From IMG/VR virus record IMGVR_UViG_2724679140_000014: a stretch of 13,036 nt of DNA, one strand, 5' to 3'. Source of the stretch: a virus. Its lineage: Duplodnaviria; Heunggongvirae; Uroviricota; Caudoviricetes. Within the stretch, counting starts at the first letter, position 1. Every line of letters begins with the position of its first letter. The notes beneath the pieces were generated by a model, which searched no databases, was not told the DNA's origin, and was given only the letters and a program-made list of their open reading frames with translations. The translations under genes were made by a program, and so were the position numbers. Below are positions 6,920-8,438 of the stretch, piece after piece.

Positions 6920-7162
6920 ATGAAGTTAAACCGCAAACAACCACACTACCGCGCCATTGACCTTACAGAGCACTGGCTGAGGGTGGCGATAAAAATCATC
7001 GACCGCAACGCGGGAGAAGGATACGCGAAAGCACATCCCGAACTGATAAGCGCATTCATGGCCACGGCGGCGGCAAATTTTGCCACGCTGACAGAGCGGG
7101 AGATTGCCGAAGCGGAACAGGTGACAACCATCAACGTTAAAACCGGAGAGCAGACAGCATGA
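6920..7162 (+). CDS. Hypothetical small protein (80 aa)
   Basis: ORF just after the ori; stop overlaps the SSB start (ATGA). Weak RBS. Confidence 0.4.
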   Translation: MKLNRKQPHYRAIDLTEHWLRVAIKIIDRNAGEGYAKAHPELISAFMATAAANFATLTEREIAEAEQVTTINVKTGEQTA

Positions 7163-7581
7163 CAGCACAGATAGCAGCTTACGGGCGGCTGGTGGCTGAC
7201 CCGCAGTTAAAGACCACCAGCAAGGGGACACAAATGGCGATGGTGAGTATGGCGGTTCCCCTGCCGTGCAGCCAGGCAGATGACGGAACGGCGACGATGT
7301 GGTTATCCGTCCTGGCGTTTGGCAGACAGGCCGATGCACTGGCCAGGCACCAGAAAGGCGAACTGGTGAGCGTGGCGGGTAACATGCAGGTAAGCCAGTG
7401 GACAGGCCAGAACGGCGAAACGCGGCAGGGCTGGCAGGTCATCGCAGACAGCGTAATCAGTGCGCGAACGGCGCGACCGGGCGGCAAAAAAGGTCAACAG
7501 GGCCAGGCTACTGACGCACTGAACAGGGCAAAACAACAGGCGGGAAATGATGACCCGTACGGGGATAACATCCCGTTTTAA
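7159..7581 (+). CDS. ssb: Single-stranded DNA-binding protein (SSB-like), 140 aa
   Basis: OB-fold-like N-terminal pattern (..YGRLVADPQLKTT..G...WLSVLAFGRQAD.LA...KG..V.V.G......W....G..R..W.V.) and an acidic C-terminal tip ending DDPYGDNIPF, resembling the SSB ..DDDIPF tail. Confidence 0.75.
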   Translation: MTAQIAAYGRLVADPQLKTTSKGTQMAMVSMAVPLPCSQADDGTATMWLSVLAFGRQADALARHQKGELVSVAGNMQVSQWTGQNGETRQGWQVIADSVISARTARPGGKKGQQGQATDALNRAKQQAGNDDPYGDNIPF

Positions 7582-7617
7582 TTCACAACAGCGAACAGAG
7601 TAATTACAGGGGAAGGC

Positions 7618-8154
7618 ATGACAACGCTGACCATTAACCGAAAACCGAAAGGCATTTACGGCACGCAGTCAGAAACGACGCAGGCGGCACAGCAGCAGGA
7701 TAAAACCACATCGGCGCATAAAGTGATACCCGGCAATCAGAACGCACAGCAGAGCCGCAAAGGGCAGCCCACAGGGGTGACACCGTGGCGGCATATGACC
7801 AAACGCCAGCGCAAAAACCGCAGACGCGTTAACCGCCTTATTGAGCTGTGGCCTGATTTATTCAGCCGGGAAACACCGAAGCCGCTTAAGGTGGGGATAT
7901 TCGACGACCTGATGCAGGATCTCGCCGTCAGGGGGCTGGCATTCGGGCCAGGGGCATTACGTGCGACGCTGGCATCTTATGCGCAGTCTCCGCGCTATTA
8001 CCGCGCCTTAATGGCTGGTGGTGCACGTTACGACCTGAAAGGCCAGCCATGTGGGGAAGTGACACCACAGGAACAGCAGGAGGCAGAAACGCGGCTGGCA
8101 GCACTGAATGAAAAGCGCAAACGTCAGGCGACAAAGGAGAGGACAGGCGCATGA
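7618..8154 (+). CDS. ProQ/FinO-domain RNA-binding protein (RNA chaperone-like), 178 aa
   Basis: Core region LIELWPDLF..PKPLKVGIFDDL....ALRATLASYAQSPRYYRAL..GGARYDLKGQPCGEVT matches the ProQ/FinO fold signature as in E. coli ProQ (..[43 protein letters not shown]..). Confidence 0.75.
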   Translation: MTTLTINRKPKGIYGTQSETTQAAQQQDKTTSAHKVIPGNQNAQQSRKGQPTGVTPWRHMTKRQRKNRRRVNRLIELWPDLFSRETPKPLKVGIFDDLMQDLAVRGLAFGPGALRATLASYAQSPRYYRALMAGGARYDLKGQPCGEVTPQEQQEAETRLAALNEKRKRQATKERTGA

Positions 8155-8438
8155 TTCGTGACAGCAAAGCGGAAGAACTGGAGACTAAAGGCCTGTACCG
8201 GAGAGCGGCGGCGCGGTGGGCTGAGGTCATGCAGCTGGTGAACACCGATAAGGAGCGCGAACAGGTGGCAAAGCGTCGCGCGGAATGCATCCGCAAGGCA
8301 GCACGCCCACCCGTTATGGCGGATAACTTCGGGGCGCTGAAAGAGGCTGTAAACCGCACTCATGCGGTGATGGGGATGGAAGACGCGGGTAAATCCGTCT
8401 GGCGGAACTACCCGAAGCAGCCTGGCAGCAACCAGTGA
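8151..8438 (+). CDS. PerC-family transcriptional activator-like protein, 95 aa
   Basis: N-terminal motif ..KAEELETKGLYRRAAARWAEVM.. typical of the PerC/Pch family; start overlaps the upstream stop; AAGGAGAGG RBS. Confidence 0.65.
   Translation: MIRDSKAEELETKGLYRRAAARWAEVMQLVNTDKEREQVAKRRAECIRKAARPPVMADNFGALKEAVNRTHAVMGMEDAGKSVWRNYPKQPGSNQ

Follow-up and report, generated by a model that had tools for sequence, protein, structure and literature searches.

A FinO-like/PerC gene cassette between ssb and a conserved terminator in a phage satellite of Escherichia coli

Results

Two modules at the probable end of the early operon

The window analyzed here is the whole 13,036-nt stretch of IMG/VR record IMGVR_UViG_2724679140_000014, which was recognized from its gene order (list of open reading frames (ORFs), Pfam, PHROG, and repeat search) as a phage satellite of E. 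coli, namely a cos-type phage-inducible chromosomal island (PICI). A block of four genes lies between its primase gene and the packaging side: orf80, ssb (single-stranded DNA-binding protein, SSB), a gene for a ProQ/FinO-family protein (FinO-like gene), and a perC-family gene. This block, composed of two modules (orf80–ssb and a FinO-like/PerC cassette), probably forms the 3′ end of the PICI's early (replication) transcription unit. A first-pass annotation had described ssb, the FinO-like gene, and perC as one translationally coupled accessory operon, starting at position 7159 and ending at a strong terminator.

The surroundings of ssb were compared among 80 IMG/VR satellites with an SSB at least 96% identical to the window SSB (SSB-anchored sample), 76 of which were assessable downstream. 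The orf80 gene precedes ssb in 77/80 of these satellites, and the FinO-like gene with perC follows it in 5/76. The terminator lies 930–942 nt after ssb in exactly those five cassette-bearing loci and within 40 nt of it in 29 others. In Nissle 1917 and HM24, the same terminator hairpin is found within ~15 nt of the ssb stop, followed by the same downstream conserved element. In EDL933 (O157:H7, OI-51), perC (PchE) comes after ssb, and the same terminator comes after perC. This terminator is common to loci L001–L007 and L021–L023, and it is located 3′ of the cassette in L002–L007. Moreover, a vestige of the ssb 3′ end remains between perC and the terminator of the window, with three mismatches in 18 nt and 0.01 matches expected by chance. 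The vestige aligns with the ssb end that stands directly ahead of the same terminator in Nissle 1917 and HM24. Of 5426 complete E. coli genomes, 2728 contain some part of the block and only 112 contain 80% or more.

The displaced terminator, the vestige, and the 5/76 count together indicate a conserved orf80–ssb core and an optional FinO-like/perC pair. The pair is an optional mobile cassette of ~0.9 kb, inserted between ssb and the conserved terminator. The orf80 and ssb genes form a conserved end of the replication module rather than an accessory part, and ssb is to be counted with the replication core, not with the cargo. The accessory character proposed in the first-pass annotation applies to the FinO-like and PerC-family genes, and it does not extend to SSB. 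A single three-gene unit was not borne out either, as SSB is located upstream of the FinO-like gene in only 28 of 75 assessable loci (see below). As judged from sequence, the three genes belong to two modules rather than to one evolutionary unit.

The FinO-like stop and the perC start overlap by 4 nt (ATGA at 8151–8154), whereas a 36-nt gap lies between ssb and the FinO-like gene, with a purine-rich, Shine–Dalgarno-like run ahead of the FinO-like start. The proposed translational coupling is therefore retained for the FinO-like/perC junction and dropped for the ssb/FinO-like junction. Because the orf80 stop also overlaps the ssb start (ATGA at 7159–7162), the unit begins upstream of 7159 and comprises four genes. 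A crude consensus scan of the window found no consensus promoter between the primase gene and ssb, and for this reason the block is most likely the tail of a long early operon rather than an operon of its own, presumably cotranscribed with the primase gene. AlpA activates early expression in E. coli PICIs (PMC6092414).

The terminator that follows the three genes proved to be real. It was overlooked by the consensus scanner, and its folding energy is −14.2 kcal/mol (z = −5.2; 0/200 shuffles fold as well). Another hairpin at the ssb stop (7559–7576), which the scanner had flagged as terminator-like, was rejected because it folds no better than shuffled sequences (−7.3 kcal/mol, z = −0.57). This sequence encodes the conserved C-terminal tip of SSB.

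SSB and ORF80

The names given to the three proteins in the first-pass annotation all stand. Profile searches with the Pfam SSB, ProQ/FinO, and PerC models gave scores above the curated thresholds in every case, and RefSeq names the proteins identically. For SSB, the scores were 59.6 bits with PF00436 (cut-off 26) and 62.5 with TIGR00621 (cut-off 53.95), and 27 solved SSB chains matched at E ≤ 1e-3. The C-terminal tip of the window SSB is acidic and reads ...NDDPYGDNIPF. In E. coli SSB, the C-terminal tip docks partner proteins. The profile search with ORF80 found no Pfam match. A fold assignment for ORF80 was also dropped, because the AlphaFold2 (AF2) model is a helical hairpin with a mean pLDDT of 70.6 and Foldseek gave no PDB match.

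FinO-domain protein

The FinO-like protein matches PF04352 with 86.9 bits (cut-off 27). Residues 1–55 constitute a Q-rich, basic N-terminal extension, which includes the KRQRKNRRR motif and is predicted to be disordered. A single FinO domain follows at residues ~56–176 (AF2 pLDDT >90), and there is no ProQ-type C-terminal domain. The sequence search against PDB yielded matches to the ProQ N-terminal domain (5nb9, 4e-12), FinO (1dvo, 8e-12), NMB1681, and RocC, with E values ranging from 4e-12 to 6e-6. In a Foldseek search with the AF2 model, a probability of 1.00 was obtained for 1dvo, 3mw6, 7rgt, and 7rgu, and the only significant neighbors were FinO, NMB1681, RocC (including terminator-bound RocC), and ProQ. 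The family assignment is thus supported by profile, sequence, and structure.

In the alignment with ProQ, the residues K35, G37, R58, Y70, and R80 correspond to K91, G93, R115, Y127, and R137, and Y127 and R137 are invariant in 14 homologs. G37, R58, Y70, and R80 are pocket residues of ProQ that are required for RNA binding (PMC10578477). The RNA 3′-end pocket is retained in the FinO-like protein. By analogy with its characterized relatives, the protein most likely binds structured RNAs via a terminator hairpin and the 3′ tail.

PerC-family protein

The perC product matches PF06069 with 123.5 bits (cut-off 22.6) over residues 1–89 of the 90 profile positions. It is 46% identical over the full length to PerC from plasmid pMAR2 of enteropathogenic E. 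coli (EPEC) and 62% identical to PchE of OI-51. Its resemblance to the ANR family is weak and sub-threshold (17.7 < 32); the same resemblance was described for another PICI PerC (PMC11773190). No solved relatives were found by PDB sequence search. A second PerC-family gene is located at the right end of the island (81.8 bits, 42% identical to the first), and the divergent intergenic region on its upstream side holds a 21-nt palindrome (12631–12662).

Pairing of the FinO-like and perC genes

A second sample was anchored on the FinO-like protein and consisted of 80 IMG/VR loci, 75 of which were assessable upstream. A perC gene overlaps the FinO-like stop (ATGA or GTGA) in 53/80 of them. In 19/80, the same 4-nt overlap is made by an unrelated 82-aa protein (phrog_1957, unknown function). 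An Ant-like 138-aa ORF and, after it, a PerC fragment occur in 4/80, and neither partner is present in the remaining 4/80. Examples of the alternative partners, with the same 4-nt overlap, are the Ant-like 138-aa ORF with a truncated PerC in L002–L007 (8479–9126) and the 82-aa phrog_1957 protein in L025 (9984–10232). On the upstream side, SSB is found in 28/75 loci, and in the largest lineage the gene there encodes an unrelated 119-aa protein.

E. coli, E. albertii, E. ruysiae, and Citrobacter all retain the coupled junction, which is found behind primases of the DUF927 type as well as the D5 type and in both classical and capsid-forming PICIs. Salmonella satellites have the same gene order with a longer FinO-like/perC overlap. 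One FinO-like variant is indexed in ~4000 blocks of a public assembly collection. Separately, locus L027 (9016–9360) encodes a 114-aa protein made up of the FinO domain only, 80% identical to the window domain, in a non-PICI island whose neighboring genes are dnd/dpt phosphorothioation genes and YagK/YfjJ-type genes. As this island is of a different kind, the FinO-like domain circulates outside PICIs too.

Island and neighboring features

The features of the window are listed in Table 1. Gram-negative PICIs are characterized by int, alpA, pri-rep, an iteron origin, packaging genes, a size of ~10–15 kb, their own att site, and the absence of structural and lysis genes (PMC6092414). The island has int, alpA, the primase gene, iterons, cos with two small terminase (TerS) homologs, a tRNA-Pro site, and a size of ~13–14 kb, and no capsid, tail, or lysis genes were found in the gene content of the window. 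The icd-like and DUF4222 genes complete the gene set, and the designation as a satellite is upheld. On its gene anatomy, the island is assigned to the helper-phage-inducible class. The chromosome of E. coli IGC_RcoliRes_1.1 is 100% identical to the window (1.8 kb compared), and there the island (~13–14 kb) is integrated at tRNA-Pro(GGG), with yejM and yejO on either side. A public genome search located the island in several genomes of Shiga toxin-producing E. coli (STEC), and a cassette-bearing island is also present in a mouse commensal E. coli. The block gave no match in a megablast search against a phage collection.

Table 1. Positions of the features in the 13,036-nt window, from left to right
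Feature	Position	Strand	Description
Integrase gene	1–1242		
alpA	1771–1977		
P1 immI-like RNA module	2989–3187	+	Early-operon leader, directly upstream of icd-like gene
IsrK-family small RNA and C4 antisense RNA	3002–3187		
icd-like gene	3242–3433		
Several small ORFs and DUF4222 gene			Between icd-like gene and primase gene
DUF927 primase gene	4431–6563		Followed by iteron field, orf80, ssb, FinO-domain gene, perC, terminator, and cos region
Putative replication origin	6585–6880		300-bp field of GGGACRAC iterons (at least 13, both orientations) around an AT-rich center; repeat families D1–D3, inverted pairs I1–I20
orf80	6920–7162	+	80-aa helical protein; phrog_1231 (unknown function), 3.5e-48
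ssb	7159–7581	+	140-aa single-stranded DNA-binding protein, OB fold; phrog_44; RefSeq WP_061892451.1
FinO-like gene	7618–8154	+	178 aa; ProQ/FinO family
perC-family gene	8151–8438	+	95 aa; start overlaps FinO-like stop
ssb 3′-end vestige	8472–8489	+	CCCGTGGGCGGATAACAT, compared with 7554–7571; 30 nt upstream of terminator
Intrinsic terminator	8520–8545	+	9-bp stem GAAGCCGGA/UCCGGCUUU at 8520–8541, U7 tract to 8545
Lambda-like cos/packaging region	8546–8705	+	Start of packaging module, follows operon terminator
DUF1441 TerS homolog	8731–9279	+	Packaging side; phrog_141
Nu1-like TerS	9966–10568	−	Packaging side, opposite strand
Second perC	12728–13036	+	Right end of island

The putative origin has a GC content of 0.41 and is positioned between the primase gene and orf80. 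An overlapping palindrome of 24 nt (AAAAACAGTGAGTACCGTTTTAAA / TTTAAAACGGTGAGTACTGTTTTT) at 1665–1706, ~65 nt upstream of alpA, is a possible operator. On the packaging side, the cos region shows 70–78% identity to unannotated intergenic DNA in ~1700 E. coli genomes. Non-coding DNA at the ends of lambdoid phages is matched as well, such as positions 44319–44471 of the 44510 of mEp460. Three lambda-like cos-type sequences (ACGGGTCCT...CGGGGCG...) are found at 8546–8705 (+), 9750–9965 (+), and 10569–10800 (−). The second and third of them form an 80-nt inverted repeat (9763–9842 and 10708–10787) around the Nu1-like terS. Both small-terminase homologs are encoded here, and the Nu1-family protein scored 227 bits. 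Through a 29-nt direct repeat (9247–9275 and 9622–9650), the 3′ end of the DUF1441 gene is present twice. A 94-aa protein (11942–12226, +; phrog_1561, unknown function) is 71% identical to the product of a conserved right-end gene of OI-51 and is a possible member of the RgdR regulator family.

Discussion

Here, we propose a role for the block based on the gene order, the protein families, and the distribution of the cassette. During helper-induced replication, SSB would coat the single-stranded DNA of the satellite, and the SSB-interacting proteins of the host would be brought in by its ...IPF tail. On switching on of the early operon of the satellite, the FinO-like and PerC-family proteins would be made together and in fixed proportion. 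The FinO-domain protein probably binds structured RNAs at a terminator hairpin and 3′ tail, as FinO, FopA, RocC, and ProQ do, with its basic, disordered N-terminal extension acting as a chaperone arm. The PerC-family protein would alter transcription by disturbing H-NS-type silencing complexes, as for Pch, which activates LEE1 in the enterocyte effacement locus (LEE) through relief of H-NS silencing (PMC4764244).

At the level of annotation, the components were already known. RefSeq gives identical genes the same three names. The presence of SSB and a PerC homolog (PchE) on this satellite family (OI-51) was described in 2011 (PMC3378721), PerC was reported on Gram-negative PICIs in 2018 (PMC6092414) and is frequent PICI cargo (PMC6092414, PMC11773190), and ProQ/FinO on a PICI has been mentioned as an annotation (PMC13612085). 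The present analysis adds the division into two modules, the mobile coupled FinO-like/PerC cassette ahead of a conserved terminator, and a distinct FinO-like subfamily with an intact RNA pocket.

FinO-domain proteins are a small and actively studied class of bacterial RNA chaperones. A widespread satellite-borne subfamily that is consistently coupled to a PerC-family gene would be a natural next case after FinO and FopA, and the coupling could illuminate the poorly understood mechanism of PerC/Pch. A further step would be that the FinO-domain protein and its overlapping small partner (PerC in 53/80 loci, others in 23/80) constitute one functional unit, possibly a complex, but we hold this idea only speculatively and regard it as quite unlikely. 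If it is true, PerC-family activators act with an RNA chaperone, or nucleoid or transcription complexes recruit a FinO-domain protein. In that case, a paired regulator that reprograms helper or host gene expression during induction would be spread by phage satellites.

Several points weigh against the proposal. In place of ProQ K54 and R62, which contribute moderately to RNA binding, the FinO-like protein has Pro and Ala. Its scores with the NCBIfam models of FinO (NF010317, 65.6 < 136) and ProQ (NF003434, 58.3 < 127) are below the cut-offs. The protein therefore represents a distinct subfamily that is an orthologue of neither, and the RNA specificity of FinO or ProQ is not transferable to it. 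In different cases, PICI PerC proteins activate LEE1, repress it, or leave it unchanged (PMC6092414, PMC11773190), and the direction of any effect is therefore unpredictable. The promoter scan was a crude consensus search, and an internal promoter in the AT-rich origin is possible. The IMG/VR counts, such as 5/76 and 53/80, are of loci from many closely related genomes and not of independent events, and a scan of species-representative genomes gave six loci, too few for neighborhood statistics.

Other functions of the cassette were considered. It might be virulence cargo directed at the host, with PerC as an activator of ler/LEE or further host promoters and the FinO-like protein rewiring host small RNA (sRNA) networks in the integrated state. 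The full-length family match, the 46% identity to EPEC PerC, and the occurrence of the island in STEC are consistent with this. Furthermore, some PICI PerC homologs are reported to activate LEE (PMC6092414), and EcCIMP1_025, a PICI PerC, changes LEE1 expression in trans (PMC11773190). However, the effect of EcCIMP1_025, the only recently tested PICI PerC, is repression (PMC11773190). The PerC-like proteins of EcCIEDL933 (PchE, which occupies the same slot in OI-51) and EcCICFT073 reportedly have no effect on LEE1 fusions (PMC11773190, citing Porter 2005). Because the cassette is also conserved in satellites of Salmonella and Citrobacter and in a mouse commensal E. coli, a LEE-specific role is improbable as its general function. 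Expression in the integrated state is itself doubtful because no consensus promoter of its own was found. Host-directed virulence cargo is thus an unlikely explanation. The connection to LEE virulence genes drawn in the first-pass annotation is weak, and a PerC on a satellite should not be read as a LEE virulence activator. A role in anti-phage defense was rejected, as none of the four proteins gave a PADLOC match.

A FinO/FinP-type self-regulatory loop was attractive because IsrK and C4 lie in the leader of the same operon and because IsrK is listed among the ProQ-associated prophage sRNAs of Salmonella (PMC5391140). The FinO-like protein would stabilize its own leader RNAs, with feedback on the expression of icd and the primase gene. 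The window holds an IsrK-family RNA (3002–3078, 80 bits), which ends in a terminator hairpin with U6, and a C4 RNA (3100–3187, 75 bits), both upstream of icd; the c4-a1b1 target element is just sub-threshold. The location of finO at the distal end of the tra operon, which its RNA partner controls in F-like plasmids, was also counted in favor of such a loop. In a first sample of 17 lineages, C4 was present in 6/10 with the FinO-like gene and in 0/7 without it, but the association was lost in two larger IMG/VR samples. C4/IsrK occurs in ~10 SSB-anchored satellites without the FinO-like gene and in only 4 of the 61 FinO-like loci that have at least 5 kb of upstream sequence, and the most abundant variant lineages (L002–L007) have neither C4 nor IsrK. 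The immI-like module as a whole is found in a minority of related satellites only. IsrK and C4 were therefore rejected as obligate partners, and there is no dedicated partnership; the protein may bind these RNAs where both are present. This leaves the loop distinctly improbable as the function of the cassette. It is even harder to accept that the FinO-like protein is a replication accessory that joins SSB in acting on single-stranded nucleic acid at the origin of the satellite. The gene adjoins ssb and the origin in the window, and several lineages likewise have the FinO-like gene after SSB. However, the upstream position is held by SSB in a minority of the FinO-like loci and by the 119-aa protein in the largest lineage, the FinO-like gene is absent from most satellites that carry the same SSB allele, and all characterized FinO domains bind RNA hairpins (PMC9977716). 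We regard this function as highly improbable. An early-operon tail that combines a replication module with a regulatory cassette remains the reading that we prefer.

Comparison with known systems

The closest islands are OI-51/CP-933C (EcCIEDL933, O157:H7; locus L021), EcCICFT073, and EcCIMP1, which share with the window the order int, alpA, icd-like gene, DUF4222 gene, primase gene, origin, small ORF, ssb, (perC), terminator, and packaging genes. The layout of the origin also agrees with the PICI origins described in PMC6092414. OI-51 is a capsid-forming PICI, whereas the window island is of the cos/Rpp type (DUF1441 protein and Nu1-like TerS) and not capsid-forming. Compared with OI-51, the window island has an extra FinO-domain gene between ssb and perC and the second PerC paralog at its right end.

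PerC of the EPEC adherence factor (EAF) plasmid and Pch of enterohemorrhagic E. coli (EHEC) share with the window protein the full-length PF06069 match and the character of a small, horizontally transferred regulator. The upstream partner differs, being a FinO-domain protein in the window and PerB (PF06590) in EPEC. The EPEC perB–perC pair was examined as a homolog of the FinO-like/perC pair and rejected, because PerB belongs to PF06590 and its BLASTP match to the FinO-like protein (E = 0.042 over 44 residues) is not significant.

Chromosomal ProQ of E. coli and Salmonella shares with the FinO-like protein the FinO domain and the equivalents of K35, G37, R58, Y70, and R80 (PMC10578477). ProQ has a linker and a Tudor-like C-terminal domain, both of which are absent from the window protein, in which K54 and R62 are not kept. 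The similarity to FinO of F-like plasmids and FopA of the IncI plasmid pCol1B9 is more extensive: location on a mobile element, a single FinO domain preceded by a basic extension at the N terminus, and absence of the C-terminal domain of ProQ. Plasmid FinO is 33–39% identical to the window protein over the domain, and FinO (1dvo) is the best structural match. The window protein differs from FinO and FopA in being satellite-borne, in the predicted disorder of its extension, and in its sub-cut-off FinO score (65.6 < 136). To our knowledge, finO and fopA loci do not show such an overlap of the stop codon with a PerC-family gene start, and every characterized FinO member of a mobile element (FinO, FopA) controls the transfer or replication of its own element via a dedicated antisense RNA. 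In architecture, the FinO-like protein of the satellite resembles FinO and FopA more than ProQ.

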